In this document: positions 1 to 13,434 of the stretch, one piece after another
Numbering within the stretch: the first letter of the stretch is position 1
Layout: every line of letters begins with the position of its first letter
NCBI GenBank assembly: GCA_029838215.1
Contig: JALGVI010000076.1
Span: 1-13,434 of the forward strand
DNA: 13,434 bases
Reading direction: 5' to 3'
Source: Candidatus Helarchaeota archaeon
GTDB taxonomy: Archaea; Asgardarchaeota; Lokiarchaeia; Helarchaeales; RDOG01
Notes under the pieces: generated by a model
The model's input: the letters and a program-made list of their open reading frames with translations, nothing else
Database searches by the model: none
What the model was told of the DNA's origin: nothing
Made by a program: the position numbers and the translations under genes

Positions 1-1067
1 ATTTTTATTTTATAACCGTCATCAGACGTTATTCTGTCCTTATATGACGATAAAAAATGTTCGGGAAAGAAGACACGGCAACAAATATCTGTCTTCAAGA
101 GAATCATGTTTGGGAACTCTTCGTACAACGAAATTATGTCTAAAAGCTTCAATTTCTTAAGGCGATCTGCAAGATTGGAAATCGTGGCTCGATGATGAGG
201 CGTGACCGTGACCAAATCATCAATTGAAATGGGTTTTGTCCTTAGTGCTTCGATGAGACAATAATAATCAAAATCCGTAAATATGCTGATAATTTGCAAT
301 TCGTCTTCATTACTTATGATGTAACTTTCAAAAAAATCCCGAACCTCTGCAAGATAAGTGCTCGCTCCGGGAAATTCCTTTCTTCTTGCAAACTTGATGG
401 TCTGCGTTGGAGGAACACGATTCAAAAAATAGTCCCGTATCAAGAAGACCAATTCGTCGTTGTCATTCTTTGGGTCAGGAAGAACCTTGAGTAACCCAAT
501 TTTTTGAAGGGGACTCAGGAAATGATCAACGTTTATGATGGATTGAAATTGGTCGCGCAATTTCGTGCTTAATTCATACTTTGAAATAAATCCTCTCTCT
601 TTCAGTGTTTTGAAAATGAACGAATTCTGTGGCTCAAGACACATCTTACAAACTTGCTGCTCATATGTCAATTGAGGGAAGTCAATGATTAATTGCAGTA
701 AATATCCAAAGTGTTTCTGATATGAATCTAAATACCTGATGATGTAATTCATGCAAATCTCAAGGATGATTTCATAGCATGCGGGGTCTTCTAAAGGAGA
801 AAGAATGACGGACAAATAAAGGTCATTTTCTGACCCCGAATAATACGTGGCAATATTGAACCCCTTATCAACCAATGAAATCAAAAATTCCACATCTGAG
901 GACTTCGGAGTGGACCCTAAAAGAGCTGTTTGAATGTCAGCAGTTATCTCAAGGGCATCAGGAACTTGATTTAAAACCCTTATCTCACCCTCTACTATCT
1001 GGTATAGAATTATACCCCGAATTTGAGTCCCAGAAGCACCTGAAGCAACCACCAAATCCACGATCAT
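1..1067 (-). CDS. Conserved Asgard-type protein, 3'-truncated at the window edge; putative N-terminal longin/uDENN-like domain plus two winged-helix-like regions
   Basis: Translated by hand: ATG at 1067-1065 (in-frame TAA at 1079-1077 upstream, GAGG just before the ATG) and 355 stop-free codons to the edge: MIVDLVVASGASGTQIRGIILYQIVEGEIRVLNQVP...FNIATYYSGSENDLYLSVILSPLEDPACYE...FPQLTYEQQ...FISKYELSTKLRDQF...LVFLIRDYFLNRVPP...YLAEVRDFFESY...RVFFPEHFL...GYKIK. Absent from the track because it has no stop in the window. The ORF is well supported; the domain call is inference. Confidence 0.85.
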   Translation of the reverse strand, partial: MIVDLVVASGASGTQIRGIILYQIVEGEIRVLNQVPDALEITADIQTALLGSTPKSSDVEFLISLVDKGFNIATYYSGSENDLYLSVILSPLEDPACYEIILEICMNYIIRYLDSYQKHFGYLLQLIIDFPQLTYEQQVCKMCLEPQNSFIFKTLKERGFISKYELSTKLRDQFQSIINVDHFLSPLQKIGLLKVLPDPKNDNDELVFLIRDYFLNRVPPTQTIKFARRKEFPGASTYLAEVRDFFESYIISNEDELQIISIFTDFDYYCLIEALRTKPISIDDLVTVTPHHRATISNLADRLKKLKLLDIISLYEEFPNMILLKTDICCRVFFPEHFLSSYKDRITSDDGYKIK

Positions 1068-1156
1068 CCTCAGACTTTAATTCTTCATATATTTGGCAAT
1101 CGTTCTAATCAATAATTATTCTTTCGGTCAGGTTGATTTTGATCCATCAGGTAAAC

Positions 1157-1176
1157 AAAAAAAAAGGAGTAAAAAA
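1157..1176 (-). terminator. Candidate archaeal oligo-T terminator after the 7TM gene
   Basis: T6 and T9 tracts on the minus strand 9-28 nt downstream of the stop at 1185. Confidence 0.4.
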
Positions 1177-1184
1177 GAAGCTGG

Positions 1185-1940
1185 TTATTCCCAACGGGTT
1201 CGAAGCCAATTTGGCAAAATAAAACCCAAATATACGAAGATCGCACTTACAATGACAAAAAACCAGCCTAAATAATAAAAAATCGAAAACGCACCACCAA
1301 AACCCGGCACTATGAACTCATCAATCACGAACATTATGTTAATGAAGACCATCAAAATTCCTGAAAGACCAATCAATTGAGAGCCGTGCTTGAAAATCCT
1401 ATTCGATGTTTTGGATGCATTTTTAAACGCGCTCACGGACAGGTAAAGACTCACGAATAAAGTCAAAATCGCCTGATACGACCAAAGCAATGTAAATACC
1501 AACTCTGCCGATGTGCCTAAAAATGGAAAAATCGCGGCTAAAATTAGAAATCCGATAATTCCAATGGAATCAAATATTATGTAGACGATGAGAATTGTCT
1601 TGCTTTTTTCAAAAAAATCCTGAATGAAGACCATGTAAAAGGCGTTTGCCAATGCAAAGCAAGCCAACGTCAAGATTAAAAACGAATCAGGTATGTATGC
1701 CGTGACGTTATACGTGAAAAGCTGATTTGTCAAGAACAGCTGAATTAGGAAATGAGCTCTTCCAATAGCAGTAAAAAATCCGCTAATCGTCCAAGCTAAC
1801 ATCGTATATACCATGTAAAGGCGAGGTCGACTCTTATTCTTTAAATACTTGTTGAGAAATAATAGGAATATCATCAACATGATTCCCGTTATCGCAAATT
1901 CTATGATCATTGCAAGAAAAATATTCCAGCTTGTTACCAT
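1185..1940 (-). CDS. Stand-alone 7TM membrane protein (HisKA_7TM-like sensor type; paralog of 11679..12476)
   Basis: Seven hydrophobic segments, KYLKNK..RLY after TM1, C-terminal YLGFILPNWL. ATG at 1940 is preceded by an AGGTGG SD-like sequence, so it is preferred over the track's GTG at 1949. 251 aa. Confidence 0.8.
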   Translation of the reverse strand: MVTSWNIFLAMIIEFAITGIMLMIFLLFLNKYLKNKSRPRLYMVYTMLAWTISGFFTAIGRAHFLIQLFLTNQLFTYNVTAYIPDSFLILTLACFALANAFYMVFIQDFFEKSKTILIVYIIFDSIGIIGFLILAAIFPFLGTSAELVFTLLWSYQAILTLFVSLYLSVSAFKNASKTSNRIFKHGSQLIGLSGILMVFINIMFVIDEFIVPGFGGAFSIFYYLGWFFVIVSAIFVYLGFILPNWLRTRWE

Positions 1941-2076
1941 TTTAACCACCTTGAATCATACCATAATAATTCCGTCAAAAAACCCGATCTATTGCCGTAC
2001 GGCAACGAGATCTTCCATCTCCTTGATTCATTGATGTCAAGCGACATTCATGTATAGTATATATCACGAGATCAAC

Positions 2077-2084
2077 TATATAAA
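2077..2084. promoter_or_regulatory. Candidate TATA box in the divergent intergenic region
   Basis: TATATAAA on plus reads TTTATATA on minus, matching the archaeal TTTAWATA consensus. It lies between the divergent genes at 1940 and 2338. Confidence 0.4.
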
Positions 2085-2337
2085 CTTGATTTCTTCTGAA
2101 AAATCCACGTCTTCGGTGAACGGAACACCGATTGTATTTGGCAGAAGAAGAATCGCAATTATCGGGATGACATCGATGAAGCCCAATTGTCAAAAATGAC
2201 GTAAAAATCGTGTTGTCAGGAATCCGTGGATTTTGAACCTAATTTTCTTCGGTATTAATTAATATAGCATTGTCGTTCTATTTTTTTTGTGATTCTCTTT
2301 TAACCAAAACTCGTAATCAAAGGGGCAGGAAGCAAAA

Positions 2338-2595
2338 ATGGACGAAAAAGAGCGCGAAAAGCTCTATAAAAAAATCAAAAAATTAATGGAGAAAGGGCTT
2401 AGGCTCATTAACGATGAAAGATGGAATAAAGCTCTCGATATTCTAGAAGAAGCCGGAAATATGGCAGTCAATATCGGCGATAAAGAGCTCGAACTAAAAA
2501 TCTCGCGACAAATGGAAAAATGCATGCTACAACTACAAGATATAATGGAAGAAGAAGAAAAAAAAATCGAAGACAAATTCTCTGAGCTATATTGA
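2338..2595 (+). CDS. Small charged all-helical protein (TPR-like or MIT-like helical bundle)
   Basis: 85 aa, ATG start. The pattern KLMEKGLRLINDERWNKALDILEEAGNMA resembles a TPR/MIT helix pair, and the tail is acidic and coiled-coil-like. The antisense ORF 2364..2576 is its shadow. Confidence 0.7.
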   Translation: MDEKEREKLYKKIKKLMEKGLRLINDERWNKALDILEEAGNMAVNIGDKELELKISRQMEKCMLQLQDIMEEEEKKIEDKFSELY

Positions 2596-2774
2596 AGCCG
2601 TAATTTTTATACAACTTAATTTCTGAGATAATCGAAAAAAAATCAATTCACGAACGGTCATTCTTTTTAATCCACGCAATGAACTCGTGAAATAGATTTT
2701 TTTCTTGAACTCATGAAAATTTGATTGCCTTCTTCTTCAAAATCATTAAAAGTCAAATCTTCCATGGATCATTA

Positions 2775-3377
2775 ATGGTATTTTCATATAATGACTTCAT
2801 GTTGTTTTTCTTCACGTTCGCGCTAATTCTACTTGCAGAATTGGCTGATAAAAGTCAGTTGGTCATTTTAACAATAGTAATGCAAAAAGGACATGCTTTA
2901 AAAGTTGCCATCGGGGCGAGTCTTGGCCTAATAACGATGACAATAATTGGAATTTTGCTAGGAGCCATCATTTCTATTTTCATTCCCATATTTTTCATTC
3001 AAATCGTCGGCGGAATCGTTTTTATCGCTTTAGGTTGCTATGGGCTCCTGAAAAAACAGCAAGAGGAAGAAATCGAGCTTGAAACCAACAAGATTGAGAA
3101 ATACGGAATTTTATTTTTCAGTTTCGTTTCTCTTTTTTTCATGGAATTGGGAGACAAGACACAGGTTTTAGCAATTTCCCTTGTTGCGATGTTCTATGCT
3201 CCGATTCCCGTTCTACTTGGAACGATCACGGCATTAACTTTACTGACGTTCTTGGCGGCATTTGCAGGTTTGATCATTGCCAAAAAAATCCCTAAAAAAA
3301 CCCTTAATTTGGTTTCCTCTGTTCTCTTCGTGCTAATTGGTATCATTATCATCTTTCTGGTATTCATTCCGTCGTGA
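2775..3377 (+). CDS. GDT1/TMEM165 (UPF0016) family Ca2+/Mn2+ transporter
   Basis: Two repeats of the family motif ExGD(K/R)(S/T)Q: ELADKSQ and ELGDKTQ, about 6 TM segments and an acidic central loop (QQEEEIELE). Start is likely ATG 2775 or 2799 rather than TTG 2721. Confidence 0.92.
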   Translation: MVFSYNDFMLFFFTFALILLAELADKSQLVILTIVMQKGHALKVAIGASLGLITMTIIGILLGAIISIFIPIFFIQIVGGIVFIALGCYGLLKKQQEEEIELETNKIEKYGILFFSFVSLFFMELGDKTQVLAISLVAMFYAPIPVLLGTITALTLLTFLAAFAGLIIAKKIPKKTLNLVSSVLFVLIGIIIIFLVFIPS

Positions 3378-3448
3378 TTAAGATAAAAATAAATAGGATC
3401 CAAGCTTAACTCAACATATTAATCCACACAAAGATCGTGTCGTTTTAG

Positions 3449-4096
3449 ATGGAAGCTTTTAGAAAGTTAAAATATTACATTAAGATTTCGGAAACTGGAC
3501 CATTATTGAGACGTTTTTTCGTGATGAATGCATTTGATGGTTCGCTCACGACTCTCGGCATTTTAATTGGTGCTTGGACGGCGAATGGTGGTTTTTTCGG
3601 AATTCTTCGGTATCCTTCTAGTTTCTTTTTTGACATGCTTACAATTCAATTTATCGTTTCAGTAGGACTGGCAACGGCTTTTTCAATGGGTGTTTCAGGA
3701 ATCTGGGGAAGTTACATGGCAAGTGAAGCCGAACGGATGGTGGAAAAAGATCACATTGAACGAGCAATGATATTAAGAAAAGGAGAATTTGACCATTCTG
3801 TCATGGACCGGGCACAAAAAGTGGGGAGCATGATGTGTGCTCTCGTGGACGGTGGCTCACCTGCTTTAGCAGCCATTCTTTGCCTCATTCCGTTTTTCTT
3901 GGCACTCGTTTTTCCCCTCAATAACGTTGCTTTTATCCTCTCTATATGCGTCACGTTTGTCCTGCTAATCATCCTCGGTGCATTCTTGGGAAAAATTTCT
4001 CAAAAAAGATTGATCATTTCCGCCATTAAAATGGTCATCGCAGGTCTTGTCATAACCGCAATCTTTGTCGTTCTAAATATCTTCTTTCCGTCTTGA
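3449..4096 (+). CDS. VIT1/CCC1 family Fe2+/Mn2+ transporter (archaeal TIGR00267-like)
   Basis: RRFFVMNAFDGSLTTLG, GLATAFSMGVSGIWGSYMASEAE and LVDGGSP motifs; about 5 TM segments; the TM metal ligands Asp (FDG) and Met (SMG) are present. Confidence 0.88.
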   Translation: MEAFRKLKYYIKISETGPLLRRFFVMNAFDGSLTTLGILIGAWTANGGFFGILRYPSSFFFDMLTIQFIVSVGLATAFSMGVSGIWGSYMASEAERMVEKDHIERAMILRKGEFDHSVMDRAQKVGSMMCALVDGGSPALAAILCLIPFFLALVFPLNNVAFILSICVTFVLLIILGAFLGKISQKRLIISAIKMVIAGLVITAIFVVLNIFFPS

Positions 4097-4353
4097 AATG
4101 GTGATCGTTAACATCTAATTATTGAAGGATTGAAAACGTGGCAAATCCAAAACCCAATGATTCATCGAGCTCTATTTCGCGGGAAAAAGGCTTGTGGTTT
4201 TTCATCATTCATGAGATCGTAAAAGACATACCATTGCTGGCAATGGAACACATGCAAGTCATGAAAGCGGGACCAAAATGCGGTTTATACCTAAGTGACA
4301 CCTTTTCTTTTGACCCAACTGACAAAAATGAAAAAAAAGAATGATTTAATGCT

Positions 4354-6084
4354 TTATTTTCTTCCCAATTTCTTAAGTTCTTTTTCGAGTAATTGACGTC
4401 GTAAAACCTTGCCAACAGGTGTTTTGGGAATCGTTGGTACGAACTCGATCTGTCGTGGCCACTTGTATCCTGCCATGTATTCCTTCGCCCAGTCAATGAT
4501 CTCCTGCTCGGTGATTTTTCCCTTGTATTCCGGCTTTAACTTGATAAATGCTTTGATGGTTTCGCCGACTGCTTCGTCTGGAATTCCAATCACGCCACAT
4601 TCAAGCACTGCTGGATGATCGTAGAGTGCCGATTCGACTTCTGCCGGGAGGATCCTGTACCCTTTATATTTAATCTGCTCTTTCGACCGACCTACGATGA
4701 AGAAATTACCCTGTTCGTCCATCTTTGCAATGTCACCCGTGCGAAGCCAGATTCGCCCTTCTTTATCCTTGACAAGCGTGTTGTTCGTGGCTTCTTCGTT
4801 CCGCCAATAACCCTTCATGATTTGAGGTCCCCGCACCAATAATTCGCCGGGTGTTCCCGGAGGCAACTCATCATCATAATTCGGTGGGTCCACGACTTTC
4901 GCATCCGTGTCGATCATCGGAAAACTAATGCTTTCAGGATTGATTTCCCGCCACAGTCCGGGAAGCGTGACCGTGCACGTGGCTTCCGTGCAACCGTATG
5001 CGTTGCTGACTTTAAGCCCTGTCTTTTCCTCCCAGCGCTGCGCAAGTCGTGGCGCTAATGGTGAAGCCCCTGAAGCGGAAAATTGAAGCGATGATAAGTC
5101 CGCTTTTTCGAAATACGGATGATTGATGATGAAGTTATACATTGCAGGAATGCCTGCCCAACTCATGAGCTTGTATTTCTCAATTAATCGACAGACGCGC
5201 TCGGGATCAAACTGATCTATGATGAGCATGATGGCACCCGTGATGCAACTGTTTAAAATGAAGAATCCCATGCCGTGGCAAAGGGGGTTTGTCGTGATGG
5301 TTGCATATTTCCCAAACTGTTTAAAAAGGTCGTGATATTCATCAGAACCCGCATTTCCCGTATATAGAAATTGCAGGGAATTCGAAATTATGTTAGAATG
5401 AGTCAACATGACTCCTTTTGGTAATCCCGTCGTTCCCCCTGTATAAAGAAGTGCTGCAAGATCTTCCTTGATATCCAATGAAACATTTGGCTGCTTGGGT
5501 TCATGCTCTTCAAGCAACTCTTTAAAAGTTTTCTCCTTGGCATCGGGTCGATCCGTGATTAGTATGATGTTCTCAATTCCAAGATCCTTTATGCTTCGCT
5601 TCACGATTCCATACTGCTGGTCCCCCACGATGAAAACCTTGATATTTTGAGCGTTGGTGGCAATGTGCCGAACCTCCTTTTTCTTCAGGAGGGGATTGAC
5701 GGGGATCAGGATGCCGCCGCTTTCTAAAATGCCGTAGACGCTGAATACGAATTCCGAACAATTGGGAACCATGCAGGCGATTCCGTCACCCTTCTTGATT
5801 CCATATTCCGTTACAAGTGCATTTGCTATGATATCTGCATTATATGATACTTCATGATAGGTGAATTTCTCTTCTTTTGGTTTGAAATAGATTGCCACGT
5901 TATTTGGAAACTCGCTTGCCGTATTCTTCAACAGACAATGAGCTCCTTCCAAATCCGGATAATTCAAAGTTTTGGGAAGATCAAGTTTTTCTTTCCCTAC
6001 CAACCACGGTCTGTTTGGACGGACCCAGGGACTCTCATCATCAAAATTTCCTATGTCCCTGTCGTAAATACAAACTTTCGTCAA
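4354..6084 (-). CDS. Long-chain fatty-acid--CoA ligase-like AMP-binding enzyme (FadD-like; substrate not determined)
   Basis: 576 aa. Adenylation motifs YTGGTTGLPKG, AYGCTEA, RTGDIAKMDEQGNFFIVGRSKEQIKYKG and PKTPVGKVLRR. TTG start with an AGGAGA SD-like sequence upstream. Confidence 0.93.
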   Translation of the reverse strand: MTKVCIYDRDIGNFDDESPWVRPNRPWLVGKEKLDLPKTLNYPDLEGAHCLLKNTASEFPNNVAIYFKPKEEKFTYHEVSYNADIIANALVTEYGIKKGDGIACMVPNCSEFVFSVYGILESGGILIPVNPLLKKKEVRHIATNAQNIKVFIVGDQQYGIVKRSIKDLGIENIILITDRPDAKEKTFKELLEEHEPKQPNVSLDIKEDLAALLYTGGTTGLPKGVMLTHSNIISNSLQFLYTGNAGSDEYHDLFKQFGKYATITTNPLCHGMGFFILNSCITGAIMLIIDQFDPERVCRLIEKYKLMSWAGIPAMYNFIINHPYFEKADLSSLQFSASGASPLAPRLAQRWEEKTGLKVSNAYGCTEATCTVTLPGLWREINPESISFPMIDTDAKVVDPPNYDDELPPGTPGELLVRGPQIMKGYWRNEEATNNTLVKDKEGRIWLRTGDIAKMDEQGNFFIVGRSKEQIKYKGYRILPAEVESALYDHPAVLECGVIGIPDEAVGETIKAFIKLKPEYKGKITEQEIIDWAKEYMAGYKWPRQIEFVPTIPKTPVGKVLRRQLLEKELKKLGRK

Positions 6085-6194
6085 AATTTTTCTCTCCTTT
6101 TACAGTCAAATTCAAGATTTTTCATTGATTTGAAATTCTGAATTTTCACTTTTTCGATCATTCTAGAACCCTCATTTGAATCTCTCAGCACGTT

Positions 6195-6239
6195 TAATTA
6201 AGTCCATGATTAATGACTTAATTAGTAATGACTCATTAA
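6195..6239. promoter_or_regulatory. Operator-like repeat array between the divergent acyl-CoA ligase and PIG-L genes
   Basis: Perfect 10-bp inverted repeat TAATTAAGTC (6195-6204) / GACTTAATTA (6215-6224) with a 10-nt spacer; direct repeat TAATGACT at 6211 and 6226; palindrome TAATGA-C-TCATTA at 6226-6238. Confidence 0.55.
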
Positions 6240-6286
6240 TTTAAGTTTTAATTTCCAATTTATTTTATCAACCAAGGTGTTTTTAT

Positions 6287-6958
6287 ATGAAGGTCCTCTT
6301 TTTTGCAGCCCATCCTGATGATTTGGATGTTTTTTGTCAAGGAACTATTTGGGGACTGCTTGCTCGAGGGCACGAAATTTTTCAAATATATGCAACTAAA
6401 GGCGAAATCGGCACGCCATTTGCGGATTTTCGAGGCGAACGACTGGGACGGATACGCGAACGTGAAGCACGAGAAGCGGCACGAGTCTTCGGCATTGATC
6501 AACAAAACGTGATATTCCTTGGTTTCCATGATGGGAGCGTGAAGGAGAAATACACTCTTGATTCCATTAATATCTTCAAGCATTGGATCGAAATGATAAA
6601 TCCTCGAGTAATATTTGCTCCTGAAGCCGATGAAGCCTCGAGCTATTATCGGCATCCTGACCATCAGCACGTTGGAAAAATGGTCCGAGAAGTATGTCAA
6701 CTTCTATCTTGGAAGCAACCGCTCTTATTTTATCACTCAATGAAAAGCAATTTTTACGTGCGCGTCAAGAGGAAAAAAACCAAGGATACGAGAGAAGTGC
6801 ATTTAAGCCAATGGTATCTAATTCCATTTGATTTCGCAAGAAAAATTCCCGTTCCGATTTTTCGCTTGAGTCAGAACCTAGTTGACGGCATTTATGCCAT
6901 TTATGCTTTTAGAAAAGGTTTTAAATGGGTTGAACCATATCGAAAAATCGATTTTTAA
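6287..6958 (+). CDS. PIG-L/LmbE family Zn-dependent N-acetyl deacetylase
   Basis: FAAHPDD, TKGEIG, IREREAREAARVFG and HPDH motifs; 223 aa. Confidence 0.92.
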   Translation: MKVLFFAAHPDDLDVFCQGTIWGLLARGHEIFQIYATKGEIGTPFADFRGERLGRIREREAREAARVFGIDQQNVIFLGFHDGSVKEKYTLDSINIFKHWIEMINPRVIFAPEADEASSYYRHPDHQHVGKMVREVCQLLSWKQPLLFYHSMKSNFYVRVKRKKTKDTREVHLSQWYLIPFDFARKIPVPIFRLSQNLVDGIYAIYAFRKGFKWVEPYRKIDF

Positions 6959-7758
6959 GCTTGATTTTCCGGATCACTCACTATCTCTTCATCACGTCTT
7001 ACAAACCAGCTCGGAAGCTTCACGTCAAATTTATCTTCAATCTTACGGAAAGTCCACGGCAGTACCTTGTCCCAGAAGACCCAAAGAACGGGCACGCCTT
7101 GGTTATATAAAATGAACGTGTCGTAAACCAAAATGAAAAGACCCGCAAGACCGAATGGACGGATTCCGAAAATAAACAGCGGAAATTCCATCATGAATGA
7201 TAACGTGCAGCCTACGAGAAATAAGTATGATACTTGCTTGTAGTCATATTTCAAAACAAGTAGTAACACGTAACTCACGATAACAATTAGAATCTCAACC
7301 CATTGGATGGATGTCATGTGCCTGTTTGTATATACTATCAGATCATGAACTGGCACGAGATACATGAACAAAGGAATGAGCATCCAACCGAGAAACACCA
7401 AGGCTGTCCACGAAATGACCTCTTTATTGGATTTTCGTTCAAACATGATGATCATCCAGCTGAAAGAAACCATTCCGTAAGAAAGAGTCATCATGAAATC
7501 AACGAGAAACTTGCTGAAAATCAAATTGAATGGCTGTGGTATGAATGGAGGAACTAGTGGCGGTATTGCCATCGTCCGAATTCCCGTGCTGGTCCAAATG
7601 ACGGCGTCAATCGTATAAATCATGATTCCGCAGATGCCTCCAAATATTAACGGCCACCACTTCTTTTTATAGACCAAAAATCCCACGTAGATGCACAGAA
7701 AAATGAAATCGAATAAAATATAATCCGCCTGAAAATTTCTTATTATGTCCCCTGCCAT
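6955..7758 (-). CDS. Uncharacterised polytopic membrane protein with an internal duplication
   Basis: 267 aa, about 7-8 hydrophobic segments. The motifs D/E-x6-7-GIR and D-x7-G each occur once in both halves. Confidence 0.82.
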   Translation of the reverse strand: MAGDIIRNFQADYILFDFIFLCIYVGFLVYKKKWWPLIFGGICGIMIYTIDAVIWTSTGIRTMAIPPLVPPFIPQPFNLIFSKFLVDFMMTLSYGMVSFSWMIIMFERKSNKEVISWTALVFLGWMLIPLFMYLVPVHDLIVYTNRHMTSIQWVEILIVIVSYVLLLVLKYDYKQVSYLFLVGCTLSFMMEFPLFIFGIRPFGLAGLFILVYDTFILYNQGVPVLWVFWDKVLPWTFRKIEDKFDVKLPSWFVRRDEEIVSDPENQA

Positions 7759-7886
7759 TTTGTCATCATCTCATCAAAGAAGATTTCCTGATCTTGTTGA
7801 TGTCAATCTCGCTCACTAAAAATAAAAGGATTAAGATTATTTCGTCTCATTGCCGTCATTGATTTCTGATTTATTGAAGTAAAAAA

Positions 7887-8510
7887 TTAAAAATATATAT
7901 CCTTTTGTAAGTAGTCGCCCGGATTTTCGAATTGATGAAGGATCTTTTCTGCTGCGGTTCCGCGGAAAATCGTCTTAAATTTTGATTTCGGTTCAAGAGT
8001 CAGTTCCAATTGTTCATCGCTTTCCTTATTATTCAAGCCACGAATCCGGTCAATTGTCCACTCCAGTCCACTATTACGAACAATAGAATCCTGTTGTTTT
8101 CGTTCATTCTGCTGAAATTTTGCAAATGTACCATAAAGTTTGATGAAATTCCTTACAATAAAGCCGAAGTTACGATAGTGTTCTCCATAGGCATATTCAG
8201 AAATGACGATAATTCTCTTCACGTTGTTTTTTTTCATCGCATCGATGACATTTTGAGTTCCTTCCGAGAATAGAGGAATTTTTTGTGATCTCATTCGCCA
8301 AGTAATGAGTACTGCATCCGTGCCTCTCAGTGAATCAATAATTTTTTCTTTATCAAAGACATCACCTTCAATTACAGTGAGATTATCGTTGGAATACGTG
8401 ATTTTTTTTGGAGACCGAACATAGGCAATTATTTCATGTCCTTTTGCTAAAGCTTTTTTTAAAAACTGTTGTCCCAATCCGCCCGTGGCGCCGAATACTG
8501 CAATTTTCAC
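7887..8510 (-). CDS. NAD(P)H-binding atypical SDR (flavin reductase/BLVRB-like, NAD_binding_10)
   Basis: MKIAVFGATGGLGQQFLKKALAKGHEIIAYVRSPKK (GxxGxxG and R-S-P), GDVFD, SGLEWT; GTG start; 207 aa. Confidence 0.9.
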   Translation of the reverse strand: MKIAVFGATGGLGQQFLKKALAKGHEIIAYVRSPKKITYSNDNLTVIEGDVFDKEKIIDSLRGTDAVLITWRMRSQKIPLFSEGTQNVIDAMKKNNVKRIIVISEYAYGEHYRNFGFIVRNFIKLYGTFAKFQQNERKQQDSIVRNSGLEWTIDRIRGLNNKESDEQLELTLEPKSKFKTIFRGTAAEKILHQFENPGDYLQKDIYF

Positions 8511-8594
8511 GATATCACGTCCTTTATTTCTAAGTTTATTATTTTTCTTTAAAGCGATTTCCTTTTAAAAAGAATTTTATTGGTATTTTTATCT

Positions 8595-9464
8595 CTATTT
8601 GTTATTTTCTTTTGCGGCGGTTCCCTTTAATAGCCTGTCAGTAAGACCAATGCTGATCGATCTTATGAATCGCAAGAGAGCCCACCATCGGGGAACCATT
8701 ATCTCGTTTTTATTTCCTCGGGATGCTTTATAGACTGCTCTTCCGATATCGTCAGCCGTGATGGCGGAATAAATCCCACCTTTTTTCTCGTAGTGGTTCA
8801 TCCAAGTCCGGAAATCCTTCGTGGTATTCCAAAATTGAGTTTTTGCGGGCGCAGGACAGATCACGATGACCTTGATTTTTTCTTTTCTGATTCGGTAGCC
8901 CAGGCGTATCACGTCTGCCATTCCAAGTATCGCATGTTTCGTGGCACAATAGGATGCCATGTCCGGCACTCCGATCACGCCTGCTGAAGACGCGATGTAA
9001 ATGAGTTGTCCTTCACGTTGGTTTCGATTTTTCTTTGGAGGTTTCCTGACGGGTCTTCCGAGGTATGGTAATGCTGCTTGTGTGAGCCTCCATTGCCCAT
9101 AGAAGTTCACGTCCATCATCTTTTGCACTTCCTCGATCGAGCCGCCGTTTAGGATGCTCGTCCGGTTGCCATATCCTGCATTATTGACCAAAATGTCGAT
9201 ATAATTTTCCTTTTTCCCGATTTTTTCAACAACCTCTTTAATTTGATCTTGGTTGGTGACGTCCATTTCCATTCCCACGGCTGACTCCGCACCCAAATCT
9301 TCAAGCTCTTCCGAAAATTCCTTCAGCTTTTCCATTTGACTTGCAAGATCCGTTAGATAAAAACGCATTCCTTCTGGTGCAAAGTGTCGGCAAATGGCAC
9401 CTCCAATCTCGCCGGCTGCACCGGTTATGACCATTACTTTACCTTTATACCATTTTTTCTTCAA
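8595..9464 (-). CDS. Classical short-chain dehydrogenase/reductase (SDR)
   Basis: TGAAGEIG, NNAG, IASSAG and YCATK (YxxxK). Asp at the end of beta2 (YLTD) suggests NAD(H). TTG start with a GGAG SD. Confidence 0.93.
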   Translation of the reverse strand: MKKKWYKGKVMVITGAAGEIGGAICRHFAPEGMRFYLTDLASQMEKLKEFSEELEDLGAESAVGMEMDVTNQDQIKEVVEKIGKKENYIDILVNNAGYGNRTSILNGGSIEEVQKMMDVNFYGQWRLTQAALPYLGRPVRKPPKKNRNQREGQLIYIASSAGVIGVPDMASYCATKHAILGMADVIRLGYRIRKEKIKVIVICPAPAKTQFWNTTKDFRTWMNHYEKKGGIYSAITADDIGRAVYKASRGNKNEIMVPRWWALLRFIRSISIGLTDRLLKGTAAKENNK

Positions 9465-9518
9465 GGTAGCAACTCCATGTTGTTTATTAAGCTTTGTTTA
9501 AATTTGATCATCATTAGC

Positions 9519-9580
9519 TTATAAAATGCGCGATGACATGATCGTTATTTATAAATCATCTGACAGTTATTTTTTATAAA
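9519..9580. promoter_or_regulatory. Divergent promoter region with three TATA-like elements
   Basis: TTATAAA at 9519, 9549 and 9574. The middle one lies in the palindrome ATTTATAAAT (9547-9556), which could be read in both directions. The region sits between the SDR (minus) and the wHTH-V4R gene (plus). Confidence 0.45.
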
Positions 9581-9635
9581 CAAGTGCTTGATTCTTGGCG
9601 CGTGGTTCATTTTATTAGATGAAGGATTGATTTAG

Positions 9636-10418
9636 ATGAGCGAACTAGAAGGTTCAAAATTAAGAAAAAGCATGAGTTTCAAAAGTAAAGGAAAGAAAAA
9701 CATTCGACAAGATATATTGGAGCTATTACAACGTAGTAAATATGGATTAAACATATCTCAAATCGTGAAAAAATTAGGATTGAGCCGAAATACCGTCAAG
9801 AAATACATGCAATCATTCGAAAAGGAAGATTTAATCGAGGTCAAGGAAATCGGTCGTTCAAAAATTTGCTTGTTTAAAAAACAAAAAAAAAACCGAAACG
9901 TGGACATATTCAGGACGTTCTTTTTCGATTTTGCAACAAGCCTGTTTGATGCATATGACCAAGTTGCTGCTTCATATTTAATTTCTGATTCAAAAGAGTT
10001 TCTGAAAGAAATTGGGCGAAAAATGAGCGTGAATTTTGAATTTCCACAAATCACGCCCGAGGATTATTTTGATTCTGCGAGAGCAAATGTCAATGAATCT
10101 CGCTTTCTCATGCAGGTAGCGCACGTTTCAAAACAATTTTTAGAATTTTTTAACACTTTCGGTCAGAACATGTTACAAGTCGAAATTGTTCCACCGAAAA
10201 TCAATGAAAATGAGCCGGTCAAATCGGTTACATTGCGAGTTCAAAATGTATCAAATGAATTTGGCGAATCCGTATCTTTTTATCACTTATGGTCGGGATT
10301 TTATGAAACCAGACTTCGTAAGAATTTCAAGGTAAATATTTGCATCGACGTTCTGGAATTTCAGAAAGAGAACTCCTGTTGCTATTTTGAGATATATGTC
10401 GGAGAAACTAGTTGTTAG
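9636..10418 (+). CDS. Winged-HTH transcriptional regulator fused to a C-terminal V4R/Bet3/H-NOX-like ligand-binding domain
   Basis: wHTH: IRQDILELLQRSKYGLNISQIVKKLGLSRNTVKKYMQSFEKEDLIEVKEIGRSK. The C-terminal half has FLKEIGRKM, FYHLWSGFYE and ENSCCYFEI, typical of the V4R-like fold. Confidence 0.8.
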   Translation: MSELEGSKLRKSMSFKSKGKKNIRQDILELLQRSKYGLNISQIVKKLGLSRNTVKKYMQSFEKEDLIEVKEIGRSKICLFKKQKKNRNVDIFRTFFFDFATSLFDAYDQVAASYLISDSKEFLKEIGRKMSVNFEFPQITPEDYFDSARANVNESRFLMQVAHVSKQFLEFFNTFGQNMLQVEIVPPKINENEPVKSVTLRVQNVSNEFGESVSFYHLWSGFYETRLRKNFKVNICIDVLEFQKENSCCYFEIYVGETSC

Positions 10419-10454
10419 ACTCCTGAGAAAAAAGACACCTGAGAGGTAATTCCG

Positions 10455-10958
10455 TTGATTTCACGAAAGGAAATCTTGCACGAAAAGGCAGCCACCTATC
10501 TCCTAGAAATGATTTACGTTGAAATTTTCGCACATGTAAAGCAGAACATGCCCGTTAAAGAAGCCGAGGATAAACTCCTGACGCTAGGACGCCATGTCAG
10601 TGAGTCTTTTTACGACATTTTCAAGTCTAAAAAGAAAACAATTCCCGCAGTACTCAAGGAATTGGGTTCTAATTTCGGAGGTCTAAAAAAGATCAAGATC
10701 ACGGAAAACATTACTGCTTTCGAAAAAAGCTTTTCAATATCCTTTGATAATTGCCCTTTTTGCATTCCTGAAGTAAGTATCGATGACATTCCCTATTGCA
10801 TTCCACTATTGGGTGTATTCGAGGGATACATCAACCAGATGTTAAAGGATGGTTTCCTGAAAAACATGCACGGACGTGTTCAGGGAAATGTCATCAAGAG
10901 CATTTCTGGAGGACACGAAAGATGCGAATATATTTTCCGGTTGAAGGAGGACGAATGA
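10455..10958 (+). CDS. Stand-alone V4R/Bet3(TRAPPC3)-fold protein with four Cys
   Basis: KLLTLGRHVSE (Bet3/V4R-like helix), NCPFC, PYCIPLLGVFEGY and SISGGHERCEY. TTG start after a GAGGT SD. Confidence 0.8.
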   Translation: MISRKEILHEKAATYLLEMIYVEIFAHVKQNMPVKEAEDKLLTLGRHVSESFYDIFKSKKKTIPAVLKELGSNFGGLKKIKITENITAFEKSFSISFDNCPFCIPEVSIDDIPYCIPLLGVFEGYINQMLKDGFLKNMHGRVQGNVIKSISGGHERCEYIFRLKEDE

Positions 10959-10959
10959 C

Positions 10960-11592
10960 GTGCCTAAGGTTAAAAGAGCGAAAGTTGGTCTAAGAGAGAA
11001 ACTTCTAGCGGCTCTAGGGAAACGACTCATGTTTAGAAAAGAGAGAAAAATAAACAAGTTGCTAATTACTCTATCGTATCGCGAAATGGTTCGCATGTTA
11101 ATACAATTGCATGGTAGTCTCGATGCTGCTTTAAAAGCGATATTCGAATTAACCGAGCATGCGGGAGATGAATTCCTGATGCAATGGATAGAATCAAGTT
11201 CACCAATTCTCTCCAAACACGTCGGCGACCACGCATTATGGATAAAAAGCGGTTATTTTGCGTTCACGGGTGATAATGTCAAGGACATCCGTTACGTGCC
11301 ACCGGAAAAAGAAGGCGATCCCCACCGAGTGATCTGGCAGGTTGAGAAGTGCTTCTTATGTGCGGGTATGAATGAAGACAAGACATTACAAATCAAACCG
11401 GAAGACTTCGGTGAATTCAACTGGGGCATCGTCCCTGCAGGAATTTTCACAAAAACCATCAATTTAATAAACGAATATTGTGGCATAGAATTCACGGGAA
11501 CCGTTCGCGAAACAAAATGCCTCATGCGAGGGGATCCTTGCGGCGAATATACCGCCGAATTCTATCCAAAACAAAAAAACGAAGAGAGATAA
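10960..11592 (+). CDS. Stand-alone V4R-domain protein with a basic N-terminal extension
   Basis: KCFLC, AGIF and the V4R signature VRETKCLMRGDPCGEY. GTG start 1 nt after the upstream stop, GGAGG SD. Confidence 0.85.
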   Translation: MPKVKRAKVGLREKLLAALGKRLMFRKERKINKLLITLSYREMVRMLIQLHGSLDAALKAIFELTEHAGDEFLMQWIESSSPILSKHVGDHALWIKSGYFAFTGDNVKDIRYVPPEKEGDPHRVIWQVEKCFLCAGMNEDKTLQIKPEDFGEFNWGIVPAGIFTKTINLINEYCGIEFTGTVRETKCLMRGDPCGEYTAEFYPKQKNEER

Positions 11593-11678
11593 GCTTAAAA
11601 ATCAATACATATAGAAAAAAATAAGCTAAACAATTAATGAAATCTCGTAAAGTAAGTAAATAGAAGGGGATTCATCTC

Positions 11679-12476
11679 ATGCTAGATGTAATATTGGAAT
11701 TCATTGGTTATGGAATCGTTGGAGTAATCGTCATATTCGTGATCCTGAATCTGGTGATTCTTCTAAAAAAATATCGTGATACAAAGAATACTGCCACTCT
11801 CTATTTTGCGATTGGTTTTATTTTTTTCCTCGGTGCGGTGGCAACATTATTCTTGGAACAGATATGTTTGGGCTTTCTCGAACGCTTTTCACTAATTCCG
11901 AGCCTAGTTGGCTTGCTTAAACCGTTGGAATTCTACGCAAGATTGTGTGCAGTCATCGCCTTGATCTTGAGCGGAACCGCTATTGTATTCATTAACTTAT
12001 TTGCCTTTGAGAACACCTTCTCTGAAAAAAAGGTGCCCCTAACAATTATTGTAACCATCTTCACCATCATGTATGTCAGCCTACTCACGTTTGCAAACAT
12101 TAATGGCTACTGTGGAGGTCCTTTGGCTCCGATATCTCAGGGCGAAATTGTTTATGATAATGTTGTCCTTTTATTCATGATTCCTTGTACCATCGTGATC
12201 GGCGTTGCGGCTCCAGGCGTGTTTTATTATTTCAGCATCACGACGTGGTCGAGTAACAAACCAAACGCAAAACGAAGCCTGTGGATGGGAATTGCCATCA
12301 CGTGCTTTGTATTTGGTTACGTGATTGAAGTGGCATCCGTTGCGGGACCTCAAACACTCATCAATATCGCTGTAGTAATTGGAAGATCCCTCATGCTGTC
12401 CGCTGCAATTATTCTCTATGTCTGCTTCCGCATGCCCGACTGGTTTAAGGCACGAATTGGTTGGATTGAGGAATAA
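11679..12476 (+). CDS. Stand-alone 7TM membrane protein (paralog of 1185..1940)
   Basis: Seven hydrophobic segments, KKYRDTK..TLY after TM1, C-terminal YVCFRMPDWF; 265 aa; no cytosolic catalytic domain. Confidence 0.82.
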   Translation: MLDVILEFIGYGIVGVIVIFVILNLVILLKKYRDTKNTATLYFAIGFIFFLGAVATLFLEQICLGFLERFSLIPSLVGLLKPLEFYARLCAVIALILSGTAIVFINLFAFENTFSEKKVPLTIIVTIFTIMYVSLLTFANINGYCGGPLAPISQGEIVYDNVVLLFMIPCTIVIGVAAPGVFYYFSITTWSSNKPNAKRSLWMGIAITCFVFGYVIEVASVAGPQTLINIAVVIGRSLMLSAAIILYVCFRMPDWFKARIGWIEE

Positions 12477-12508
12477 AACACGATCCACCTGACAAATCTT
12501 CTATTTTT

Positions 12509-12910
12509 TTATTCCCAAAAAGTTGAGACTTCTTTAATGGAAGAGATTTTTCTATCTGGTGTTATTATAATTCCGTCCGCTTGCAAGGATTGAGCGCAAA
12601 TTCCTGCATCAAAGTAATCCAACTCATATTTTGATTCCAATCTTGCAATATTGTACAACACGACGGGTGCGATGGGGATGATATTCTTCTCGAGTTTTGG
12701 AAAATCGGCTAGCAGTAATGAATGTTTTTCCATGCGCTCTTTATATGAAAAACCCCTGCTTTGTAAGACGATATCAAATTCCATCAATGCAAGAGAGGGA
12801 ATAAAACACTTTCCATCGTTAGCCTTCTTCAAATATTTTAGTCCAATTTGATGGTATTTGTTTTTGGTATCTGCAGCACTAAAAATAACTATTGTATCAA
12901 TAACTGGCAT
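12509..12910 (-). CDS. vapC: VapC-type PIN-domain ribonuclease toxin
   Basis: VIDT, PSLALMEF, LDYFDA and IITPD supply the PIN acidic residues; 133 aa; its ATG overlaps the antitoxin stop (TAATG). Confidence 0.9.
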   Translation of the reverse strand: MPVIDTIVIFSAADTKNKYHQIGLKYLKKANDGKCFIPSLALMEFDIVLQSRGFSYKERMEKHSLLLADFPKLEKNIIPIAPVVLYNIARLESKYELDYFDAGICAQSLQADGIIITPDRKISSIKEVSTFWE

Positions 12911-13137
12911 TATTTGCTCTCCGTATTAAAAATGTATTTAGTTGCTTCATGCTCTTCTTCCTTAAAATCAAATCCGTCTAATGAACCAACGAATTTTTTT
13001 GTTTTTAATGGTACCACGTGAACGCGGTTTAAAGTTGCGAATATGAGGACTTTGTCTCCCGGTTTTATTCCCGCTATTTTTGCCTGTTTTTTTGGAATTC
13101 TTATTCGATTTTTATCATCAATGGTAATGACGCTCAT
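12910..13137 (-). CDS. vapB: AbrB/MazE/SpoVT-family antitoxin (VapB)
   Basis: TIDDKNRIRIPKKQAKIAGIKPGDKV AbrB motif; 75 aa from ATG 13137 (the track uses GTG 13143); directly upstream of the PIN gene. Confidence 0.88.
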   Translation of the reverse strand: MSVITIDDKNRIRIPKKQAKIAGIKPGDKVLIFATLNRVHVVPLKTKKFVGSLDGFDFKEEEHEATKYIFNTESK

Positions 13138-13165
13138 TTTCACTCACTATTATTTATATTTTTCG

Positions 13166-13188
13166 CCCACAAATTTATACATTGTGGG
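13166..13188. promoter_or_regulatory. Likely VapBC autoregulatory operator
   Basis: CCCACAA-N9-TTGTGGG inverted repeat enclosing a TATA-like sequence (minus-strand GTATAAAT), about 30 nt upstream of the antitoxin start. Confidence 0.55.
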
Positions 13189-13307
13189 ACAGATCAAGAT
13201 TGATCAACCAAGAGAAAAGGGAAAAATTAAACGAAATTTTCACACGCAAATTTAAATTCGGAAAAATCTATTGTTTTTAACTGAACAATATGGACTTGAG
13301 ATGAAAA

Positions 13308-13434
13308 ATGAGCCAAGATAAAATCTTGGAAGAAATTGACCGAATTTTAAGCAAGGGAATGGAAATATTTCAAAAAATCACGAGTTGTCACCCAAGTAAC
13401 GTCACGGAAGTAACGGAATCTCCCATTAAATTTG
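13308..13434 (+). CDS. 5' part of a hypothetical protein running off the right edge
   Basis: ATG 13308 and 42 open codons, MSQDKILEEIDRILSKGMEIFQKITSCHPSNVTEVTESPIKF; amphipathic-helix-like start; divergent from vapBC. Confidence 0.5.
   Translation, partial: MSQDKILEEIDRILSKGMEIFQKITSCHPSNVTEVTESPIKF

Follow-up and report, generated by a model that had tools for sequence, protein, structure and literature searches.

A conserved pair of adjacent genes for diverged TRAPPC3/Bet3-fold paralogs in Asgard archaea

TRAPPC3-like proteins belong to the "eukaryotic signature proteins" of Asgard archaea and have so far been treated as single, homodimeric proteins. Here, we describe two adjacent genes for such proteins in a stretch of 13,434 nucleotides (the window; positions 1 to 13,434) from contig JALGVI010000076.1 of the Candidatus Helarchaeota assembly GCA_029838215.1, one contig (C31) of a 3.6-Mb genome in 170 contigs (G000). 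The nearest homologs in the databases are likewise attributed to Candidatus Helarchaeota. The two genes, O2 and O3, are preceded on the same strand by a gene for a winged helix-turn-helix (wHTH) protein, O1, and followed by a gene for a seven-transmembrane (7TM) protein, O4. A preliminary description, made from the sequence alone, had taken the four genes together for a membrane-to-transcription signalling module. We are highly confident that O2-O3 is a self-contained and conserved two-gene unit and that the four-gene module is not. What is new here is the conserved, coupled pair of Bet3-fold paralogs, while the existence of Asgard TRAPPC3-like proteins was already known. The complete reading, in which three independent units have come to lie side by side and one of them, O2-O3, is a conserved coupled pair with a predicted heterodimeric product, is given a probability of about 0.6. 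The four genes are as follows:

9636..10418, + strand: O1, 260 aa, wHTH plus sensor domain
10455..10958, + strand: O2, 167 aa, TTG start, TRAPPC3-like protein
10960..11592, + strand: O3, 210 aa, GTG start, Bet3-fold protein
11679..12476, + strand: O4, 265 aa, stand-alone 7TM protein

The co-orientation of the four open reading frames (ORFs), their spacing (36 nt between O1 and O2, 1 nt between O2 and O3, 86 nt between O3 and O4) and the presence of Shine-Dalgarno (SD)-like motifs, all given in the preliminary description, are borne out by the coordinates and the sequence. Read from the sequence, the motifs are GAGAGGT at 10441-10447 for O2, GGAGGA at 10946-10951 for O3, which falls inside the 3' end of O2, and GAAGGGG at 11663-11669 for O4. 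The unusual start codons of O2 and O3 are supported by the orthologs, which start with ATG at the same places.

The O3 family was aligned from 22 sequences (alignment A1) and the O2 family from 14 (A2); a word-based search with O2 returned O2 alone, and the relatives of O2 were gathered from the surveyed loci rather than by word search. The two families are homologous to each other (hhalign probability 97%, E 1.3e-10, 17% identity over 151 columns). Against the PDB sequences, the O2 profile matches over nearly its full length two entries named "TRAPPC3 from Thorarchaeota" (7yh3_A, E 1e-12; 7yh2_A, E 1.4e-12), as well as eukaryotic TRAPPC3 (6aq3_A, E 8.2e-7) and 13 further TRAPPC3/Bet3 sequences at E<=1.5e-3. 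The O3 profile likewise finds 7yh2_A (E 7e-4) and TRAPPC3 6aq3_A (E 8.4e-4). For the fold, the evidence for the pair covers a predicted model of O3 (predicted local distance difference test, pLDDT, 88.6; predicted template-modelling score, pTM, 0.85), with O2 being placed by its profile. In this model a two-layer alpha/beta fold, consisting of N-terminal helices and a 4-stranded sheet, superposes on Bet3. Foldseek retrieves yeast and mouse Bet3 (E 1.1e-7 to 1.8e-5, TM-score 0.60-0.78) and PoxR (E 1.5e-4). The best structural matches of O3 are eukaryotic Bet3 proteins (3CUE, 2C0J, 2J3R, 2CFH; Z 14-17, TM-score 0.6-0.78), with which it shares a sequence identity of only 12-15%. VIA comparisons give Z 17.2 for yeast Bet3 (3cue_E; root-mean-square deviation, rmsd, 3.4 A, 181 residues aligned), Z 16.3 for mouse Bet3 (1wc8), Z 15.0 for Thor-TRAPPC3 (7yh3_D; rmsd 2.7, 152 aligned) and Z 11.8 for TPC6 (2bjn_B), followed by the V4R sensors MopR, PoxR and DmpR (Z 9.8-10.9), the archaeal V4R protein MJ1460 (Z 8.0) and H-NOX (Z about 7).

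The O3 model can thus also be said to have a V4R-type fold, which is shared by the whole superfamily and does not discriminate between its members. Proteins with the V4R domain (PF02830; XylR/DmpR/PoxR/MopR, MJ1460) share with O3 the superfold and a C-terminal Cys/Glu metal motif, but O3 is nearer to Bet3 (Z 16-17) than to the V4R sensors (Z 8-11). The Pfam TRAPP model PF04051 gives weak matches in 3/14 members of the O2 family (best E 4.6e-4) and in 0/22 of the O3 family, and it has no match at E<=1 in the O2 and O3 of the window itself. Since 10 of the 22 O3-family members match PF02830 weakly (best E 1.6e-4), the O3 family, judged from its sequences, borders on V4R. O2 and O3 are therefore diverged paralogs in the TRAPPC3/Bet3-V4R superfamily that stand between the two named families, nearer to Bet3. 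By profile, and for O3 also by its model, both match TRAPPC3 better than TRAPPC5 or TRAPPC6, and for this reason neither of them can be equated with Trs31 or Trs33. Podar and colleagues are said to have proposed in 2008 that V4R was the ancestor of Bet3.

The closest characterized relatives come from Thorarchaeota. According to the available part of the paper, two Thor-TRAPPC3 proteins have been solved (7YH2, 7YH3) as Zn-binding homodimers that resemble the TRAPPC3/C6 heterodimer, with the Zn bound by four Cys and with hydrophobic cavities (Tran, Akil, Senju, Robinson, 2024; PMC10933270). Four Cys residues of O2 (C100, C103, C115 and C157) are invariant in 14/14 sequences and align with the Cys residues of Zn-binding 7yh3. 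All four invariant Cys are thus matched in the alignment of these two Asgard proteins, and O2 appears to keep the predicted four-Cys Zn site of the Asgard type. In the O3 family the invariant residues are C131, C134, E184, C187, G191 and D192 (A1 alignment). Relative to Thor-TRAPPC3, two of the Cys positions are lost and an invariant Glu-x-x-Cys is found instead, which would make a variant Cys-Cys-Glu-Cys site of C131, C134, C187 and E184. These putative Cys metal sites also set O2 and O3 apart from mouse TRAPPC3, for which a hydrogen bond at the position of the Cys metal site is described in the accessible text of PMC10933270. The N-terminal helix of O3 is basic.

In the survey of related genomes, O3 matched 48 places in 13 of 41 genomes, of which 45 loci were examined; the other 3 are fragments on ORFs of 48-81 aa. 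Among the related genomes, G001 alone represents the family of the window. Flanks of mostly about +-7 kb, shorter at contig ends, were considered. In 42/45 loci from 13 genomes, O3 is immediately preceded by a co-oriented O2-like gene; 40 of these cases were recognized in the neighbourhood survey and two (L052 and L055) in a six-frame search. Two of the three loci in which no O2 was detected are truncated at contig ends, and one, L050, is truly without O2. With the longest-ORF starts, 37 of 40 O2-to-O3 gaps fall between -47 and +19 nt (median 3). As a side observation, a gene with an HTH_47-type wHTH (7188-7808) takes the place of O2 upstream of O3 at L050.

The pairs are numerous in the order to which the window belongs. 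In the genome of the window there are 6 strong O2 and 6 strong O3 matches, all of them paired (on C31, C12, C106, C112, C86 and C154), and no strong unpaired copy of either was found in this genome; other genomes of the order hold 3-10 O3-family matches each. In two sister families within the class, 64/68 and 7/7 genomes carry just one copy, of a long form in which the O3-like domain makes up the N-terminal 200 residues of a protein of ~490 aa, and an O2-like gene precedes the long-form O3 in 6/6 loci examined. The C-terminal extension of the long form (250-290 residues; L008:685-2067, L010:1471-2946 and relatives) has no Pfam match, and the short form is without it. Of 301 genomes sampled phylum-wide, 127 have some match to the O3 profile. 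Beyond this class they are weaker and fall on proteins of 170-210 aa, which are occasionally in tandem: in other classes, weak O3-profile matches lie on 2-3 tandem genes for proteins of ~170-186 aa (G047:C15:16965-17972; G137:C24:16988-18389). Tandem TRAPPC3-like genes may extend beyond the Loki/Hel group.

Within five genomes, the distances among the O2 copies were compared with those among the O3 copies by 2000 permutations each. The distances correlate in G003 (r 0.92, reached in 0/2000 permutations), G001 (r 0.74, 1/2000), G006 (r 0.89, 31/2000) and G000 (r 0.82, 139/2000). Because O2 and O3 distances correlate in 4/5 genomes, the pairs seem mostly to have been duplicated and to have diverged as units. 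The partnership could nevertheless be looser than a heterodimer, with O2 and O3 forming separate homodimers and their adjacency reflecting the co-regulation of paralogs with related but separate ligands. Such a reading finds support in the crystallized Thor-TRAPPC3, which is homodimeric, in the homodimers that were modelled for the homologs of MK-D1 and Heimdall and in the description of V4R sensor domains such as that of PoxR as homodimers, all from the available part of PMC10933270. It sits less well with the strict 1:1 pairing at 42/45 loci in overlapping or near-abutting frames, with the lack of strong unpaired O2 or O3 genes in the genome of the window, with the duplication and divergence of paralogous pairs as units and with the persistence of the pair while its two members diverged very deeply (17% identical in the hhalign columns). 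As 1:1 pairing, co-divergence and deep retention are typical of obligate partners, an obligate partnership is favored and the formation of separate homodimers is considered unlikely.

Very probably, then, O2 and O3 work together. On the preferred reading, they are anciently diverged TRAPPC3/Bet3-fold paralogs whose 1-nt gap would couple their translation and lead to equimolar synthesis. Most likely, by analogy with the pairing of Bet3 with Trs33 or Trs31 in eukaryotic TRAPP, they would form a heterodimer via their N-terminal helices, with a metal-stapled cavity in either subunit that would take up a small hydrophobic ligand. The Zn site and the hydrophobic cavity are proposed because Tran et al. 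report them for Thor-TRAPPC3, and the ligand because mouse TRAPPC3 binds palmitate and PoxR binds phenols, as stated in the available portion of the same paper (PMC10933270). Since there are 3-10 pairs per genome, in unrelated gene contexts, the pairs are suggestive of diversified ligand-binding or adaptor modules rather than of a single trafficking complex. As to the neighbors on either side, O1 would be a ligand-sensing wHTH regulator that here precedes the pair by 36 nt and may drive transcription of the two genes, and O4 would belong to an expanded 7TM family as one of its copies and would probably have a promoter to itself.

Several points weigh against this reading. The solved Asgard relative, Thor-TRAPPC3, is a homodimer, and homodimers were modelled by Tran et al. 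for other Asgard homologs (available part of PMC10933270). Co-divergence is absent in one of the five genomes (G005; r 0.20, 585/2000), and the power of the permutation test is low when a genome holds 5 pairs. The evidence for binding of a metal and of a ligand is the alignment, and the gene contexts of the pairs give no hint of a ligand or of a cellular role. The 36-nt gap in front of O2, together with the lack of a TATA-like element there, leaves open a functional link between O1 and the pair that would be specific to this lineage.

In the preliminary description, O1, O2 and O3 were thought to be three divergent paralogs with V4R-like features that hetero-oligomerize, the two stand-alone proteins coupling the 7TM protein O4 to the wHTH protein O1 in a kinase-free signalling module, which could at most be confined to this lineage. 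Much of what it had read from the sequence stands: the first gene is indeed fused to a wHTH (Pfam HTH_24, E 4.6e-8, and predicted model), and the 7TM protein is without a kinase or other output domain, as judged from hydropathy, loop charges and searches of Pfam and NCBIfam. The expected V4R/Bet3 fold is likewise found, O3 (by its model) and O2 (by its profile) belonging to the Bet3/V4R superfamily and the sensor domain of O1 having the same broad superfold. The V4R-like features of all three proteins hold at this level, but neither PF02830 nor a like NCBIfam model matches O1, O2 or O3 at E<=1. Positive controls in the same genomes were matched by PF02830, namely a wHTH-V4R protein on C86 of the genome of the window (L016, 8.3e-8), its relative in G002 (L036, 2.2e-6) and an XylR_N+V4R protein in G003 (L023:1786-2538, 1.2e-8). 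The view of three divergent paralogs applies to O2 and O3 but not to O1, whose family has no significant profile similarity to those of O2 and O3 (hhalign 2% and 0.6%). BLASTP found no pairwise similarity among O1, O2 and O3. As a third paralog of O2 and O3, O1 is thus excluded at the sequence level.

What fails is the conservation of the four-gene unit. An O1-like gene is present at 1/45 O3-family loci, that of the window itself, and an O4-like gene occurs within the flanks (7 kb) at 3/45 loci, being adjacent to the pair nowhere except in the window. The 7TM gene is therefore not kept beside the V4R-like genes in relatives across the 45 loci, an outcome that the preliminary description itself had named in advance as counting against its proposal. 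Neither O1 nor O4 is found within +-5-6 kb at the three orthologous loci (G005, G002 and G003; O3 57-63% identical), which are flanked by genes for crotonase, PGA_cap-like, TFB, MaoC, metallo-beta-lactamase and XylR_N+V4R proteins. Conversely, there is no O2-O3 pair or O4-like gene at the 5 other loci of the O1 family and no O2-O3 pair at the 4 loci of O4 paralogs in the genome of the window. In G001 one O4-like gene lies 4.7 kb from a pair, which is within chance given the 26 O4-family copies of that genome. A signalling module restricted to this lineage can point to the co-orientation and close spacing of the four genes with their SD-like motifs, to the lack of a TATA-like element before O2, by which O1-O2-O3 may be one transcript, and to the one broad superfold that is common to the three soluble products. 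In view of the distribution just described, of the TATA-like element and the 86-nt spacer that O4 has of its own, of the missing profile similarity of O1 to O2 and O3 and of the lack of comparative support for an oligomer of the trio or its coupling to the 7TM protein, we regard it as highly improbable. As firmly as conservation can be assigned to the pair only, the kinase-free 7TM-to-wHTH arrangement is a local juxtaposition and no system.

The XylR_N+V4R gene in G003 (L023:1786-2538 on C30; Pfam 2.3e-6 and 1.2e-8) is an observation in its own right. It belongs to an orthologous locus and follows O3 directly on the same strand, so that a true V4R protein can adjoin a Bet3-like pair.

O1 itself carries its wHTH at residues 23-68 (HTH_24), or about 23-80 in the predicted model (pLDDT 80.7, pTM 0.73), where VIA compares it with ArsR/MarR/PerR-type domains at Z about 10. 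The C-terminal domain (residues about 87-255) is predicted to fold in the order alpha-alpha-alpha-beta-beta-alpha-beta-beta, which is the H-NOX/V4R superfold. Foldseek with the model yields H-NOX 1xbn (E 1.7e-4), the V4R protein MJ1460 (2oso, E 1.6e-3, TMt 0.43) and MopR (5kbi, E 4.3e-3), AxCeSD being also among the fold neighbors of the sensor domain, and VIA aligns 135 residues (model residues 95-257) with the H-NOX domain of sGC-beta (8hbe_B; Z 10.1, rmsd 3.3 A). Among the best 50 VIA matches most are wHTH domains and those to the sensor domain are H-NOX, with no V4R or TRAPPC3 protein among the matches listed; in the ESM Atlas, V4R leads for the C-terminal part reach scores of only 0.76-0.78. 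Against the PDB sequences, the O1 profile matched wHTH domains only. H-NOX domains are defined by a heme-ligating His. In the alignment of the O1 family (A3, 16 sequences) the invariant residues are E183, G221, E224, C249 and Y250, and there is neither an invariant or near-invariant His nor a Cys cluster. Although the best fold matches of the sensor domain are H-NOX/HNOB proteins (1XBN, sGC beta 8HBE), the identity of 12-15% speaks for a resemblance of fold only, and with no conserved His in the family O1 was rejected as an H-NOX heme sensor.

The O1 profile does align with the canonical wHTH-V4R protein of this genome beyond the wHTH (positions 18-199, E 3.8e-13). O1 has the same wHTH-plus-sensor architecture as the archaeal wHTH-V4R regulators but lacks the Cys metal site of V4R/TRAPPC3. 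From profile and predicted fold, it is best described as a diverged relative of these regulators of the one-component type, as it would combine a wHTH and a small-molecule-type sensor fold in a single polypeptide. Of 80 loci retained from a metagenome scan with the O1 alignment, two (L077 and L078) match beyond the wHTH, and these were examined. The relatives considered here come from six loci, namely that of the window, that of a paralog elsewhere in the same genome, three in G001 and one on a metagenome contig. Four of these six loci lie divergently beside genes for FAD-linked oxidases (GlcD-like), often with CCG-type Fe-S genes: L015 (G000:C158), L038 and L039 (G001), and L077 (metagenome contig). 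In the window, the divergent neighbors of O1 encode an SDR and an NAD(P)H-binding protein. Such neighborhoods suggest that O1-family proteins may control redox enzymes encoded nearby.

O4 has 7 strong hydrophobic segments and 1 marginal one in a variable loop, and the charges of its loops fit a 7TM protein with the N-terminus out and the C-terminus in. Its family (alignment A4) shares the motifs KYRxTK after the first transmembrane segment, FAF after the third and MPxWFKxxIGWEE at the C-terminus. It is similar in size to HisKA_7TM (PF16927) and 7TMR-DISM_7TM domains, without a detected kinase or output domain in O4 itself. Pfam gives no consistent family for 7 members: PF16927 matches 0/7 at E<=10 and 7TMR-DISM_7TM matches 1/7 (E 1.2). 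The nearest ESM-Atlas clusters contain only Asgard proteins, one of them being auto-named "Histidine kinase N-terminal 7TM region" (score 0.95), and this language-model neighbor cluster is the only functional lead. A library of 1.8 billion proteins holds at least 150 cluster representatives of the family at E<=1e-3, nearly all of them stand-alone proteins of 230-280 aa; for six longer relatives no output domain was detected by Pfam, except for a weak DUF835 in one. There are four more copies in the genome of the window. The stand-alone 7TM proteins to which O4 belongs form a family that is enriched in Asgard archaea and rich in paralogs. Its multiplication in G001 (5.8 Mb), with 26 matches and several tandem arrays of 4-5 genes (e.g., C1:333669-336992, C5:1294336-1298466), is a striking lineage-specific expansion.

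A distant member of the O4 family is encoded elsewhere in the window:

1185..1949, - strand: distant O4-family member, outside the cluster (BLASTP versus the O4 C-terminus, E 0.001)

Its product fits into the family alignment, where it shows the shared motifs as KY(L)xxK, FA(L) and (L)PxW...W(E). Located 117 nt downstream (region 3-1949, - strand) is a gene for a 355-aa protein that is cut by the end of the window and has a weak MarR-like wHTH (E 0.0018); by iterated search, its family has 9 members in the genome of the window. A 7TM gene thus adjoins a wHTH-bearing gene twice in the 13-kb window, the wHTH families being different.

Possible transcription units were read from the intergenic regions:

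8595-9464, - strand: SDR gene, divergent neighbor of O1
9465..9635, strand not assigned: divergent intergenic region from the SDR gene to O1, several TTTATAAA-type TATA-like elements
10419..10454, + strand: O1-O2 spacer, 36 nt, SD-like GAGAGGT at 10441-10447
11593..11678, + strand: O3-O4 spacer, 86 nt, TATA-like TTAAAAAT at -84 from the O4 start and SD-like GAAGGGG

A scan for A/T-rich 8-mers found these at -117, -91 to -87, -67 to -63 and -27 from the O1 start, and a repeat search found palindromic TATA-like repeats in 9465..9635. Both kinds of search give weak hints only on promoter regions; a scan for sigma-70 promoters and intrinsic terminators was set aside as not applicable to archaeal promoters. 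The region 9465..9635 is probably the promoter region of O1 and possibly that of O1-O2-O3 jointly. In the 130 nt before O2 of the window, the same 8-mer scan finds no TATA-like element, while such an 8-mer precedes O2 in 3/3 orthologous loci. Because of this difference, and because several such elements precede O1, O1-O2-O3 may be a single transcript in this genome, in which case the pair would have been captured locally by a regulator gene. O4 may have its own promoter, as predicted from the TATA-like element in the O3-O4 spacer.

The surroundings of the pairs were surveyed in the form of 133 genes within two positions of 39 pairs, leaving out the neighbors of the C154 pair. These genes form a mixed set, with ribosomal proteins, RNase P, proteasome, ArgRS, DNA ligase and TFB, as well as beta-oxidation enzymes, FAD oxidases, Fe-S proteins, glycosyltransferases and unrelated transcription factors, and no recurrent third partner of the pair is found among them. 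The comparison with eukaryotes raises the possibility that O2-O3 corresponds to the TRAPP core in Asgard archaea. Instead of binding a ligand, the pair would then work together with longin or roadblock proteins and serve small GTPases as an exchange factor or platform. In favor of this reading, O3 is structurally closest to Bet3 inside yeast TRAPP complexes, 12 genes in 11 loci encode a single longin-like domain, a Robl_LC7 gene lies 2-4 genes away in 5 orthologous Loki-type loci, and two of the 39 pairs have a small GTPase gene within two genes. The longin-like neighbors are sporadic, however, and the longin and roadblock genes are inconsistent in position and strand, with none near the five surveyed pairs of the genome of the window. 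According to the available part of PMC10933270, Asgard archaea are very rich in genes for longin, roadblock and GTPase proteins, which puts the frequency of such genes here near the background, and 3-10 pairs per genome among metabolic and housekeeping genes are unlike a single trafficking complex. On balance we think it improbable that the pair serves as such a core, and the preferred reading remains that of a ligand-binding or adaptor pair. In the genomic context, no consistent linkage of the pairs to longin, roadblock or GTPase genes was found, and an association with longin/roadblock, small-GTPase or transcription-factor genes was dropped as being near background frequency.

The two GTPase genes, which are probably background, encode a Ras-family protein of 363 aa two genes upstream of one pair (L013:834-1925; G000:C86) and a Gtr1/RagA-like protein that adjoins another (L045:7672-8832; G001:C11). 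Proteins of ~206-257 aa are encoded beside several pairs (L042:6132-6815, L047:3440-4108, L049:3661-4341, L066:4705-5361, L050:7188-7808 and L075:3431-4204). Most of them have a C-terminal wHTH of the HTH_47 type; that of L075 has a weak Fuz_longin_1 match (E 0.0039), and no HTH_47 was detected in it. The frequency of the HTH_47-type and Robl_LC7 neighbors may also be near the Asgard background. An unannotated family of ~350-390 aa without a Pfam match has 7 genes near pairs at 6 loci in 4 genomes (L012:4130-5311, L037:4179-5330, L060:1922-3094, two copies at L042, L069 and L023:8394-9200). At one locus of the genome of the window (C106) a gene of this family follows O3 immediately and in the same direction, and a look-alike adjoins an O1-family regulator (L038:5425-6651). 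Beyond O4 lies an ordinary VapBC-like toxin-antitoxin pair (12509-13143), in which a gene for a MazE/AbrB-type antitoxin (12910-13143, - strand, 77 aa; PF04014, 3.6e-6) precedes, with an overlap of 1 nt, a PIN-domain gene (12509-12910, - strand; Pfam PIN, 8.4e-9) that is convergent with O4.

A full-text search of the literature brought up no paper that describes a tandem or heteromeric TRAPPC3 pair in Asgard archaea; supplements were outside this search and might bear on the matter. In its available part, the paper on Thor-TRAPPC3 notes a longin-TRAPPC3 fusion and does not mention adjacent paralog pairs, and the accession numbers of its two MK-D1 proteins are far apart (PMC10933270). A preprint of 2026 (10.64898/2026.10.28.762692) groups Asgard structural clusters with TRAPPC5/C6 and with TRAPPC3, its accessible text holding no information on gene order. 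Thor-TRAPPC3 is a homodimer from a single gene, whereas the present proteins are two paralogs with 17% identity over the hhalign columns, whose coupled genes occur 3-10 times per genome in the order of the window. In the core of eukaryotic TRAPP, Bet3 forms heterodimers with Trs33/TRAPPC6 and Trs31/TRAPPC5. The likeness lies in the use of two different Bet3-fold subunits, the pairing of which is predicted in the archaea, and unlike in eukaryotic TRAPP no conserved longin subunits or GTPase accompany the pairs.

Removing the false lead of a "kinase-free 7TM-to-wHTH signalling module" leaves a pair that provides the crystallized Asgard protein family with a concrete, testable partner and that is relevant to the origin of the TRAPP core, the heterodimer being the key prediction. 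A more far-reaching scenario is tentative and would require several steps: an obligate Zn-containing heterodimer would have existed in the ancestor shared by the Asgard archaea of the Loki/Hel type, heterodimerization of Bet3 subunits would predate the eukaryotes, 3-10 specialized pairs per genome would have arisen later in the order of the window, and in the present genome one of them would have been captured by a ligand-sensing wHTH regulator. As a whole we hold it to be doubtful. The multi-copy expansion of the pairs in metabolic and housekeeping contexts argues for an ancestral role in small-ligand binding or as an adaptor over one in vesicle tethering. If the heterodimer is true, the asymmetric pairing of Bet3 paralogs in the eukaryotic TRAPP core would have a prokaryotic precedent.

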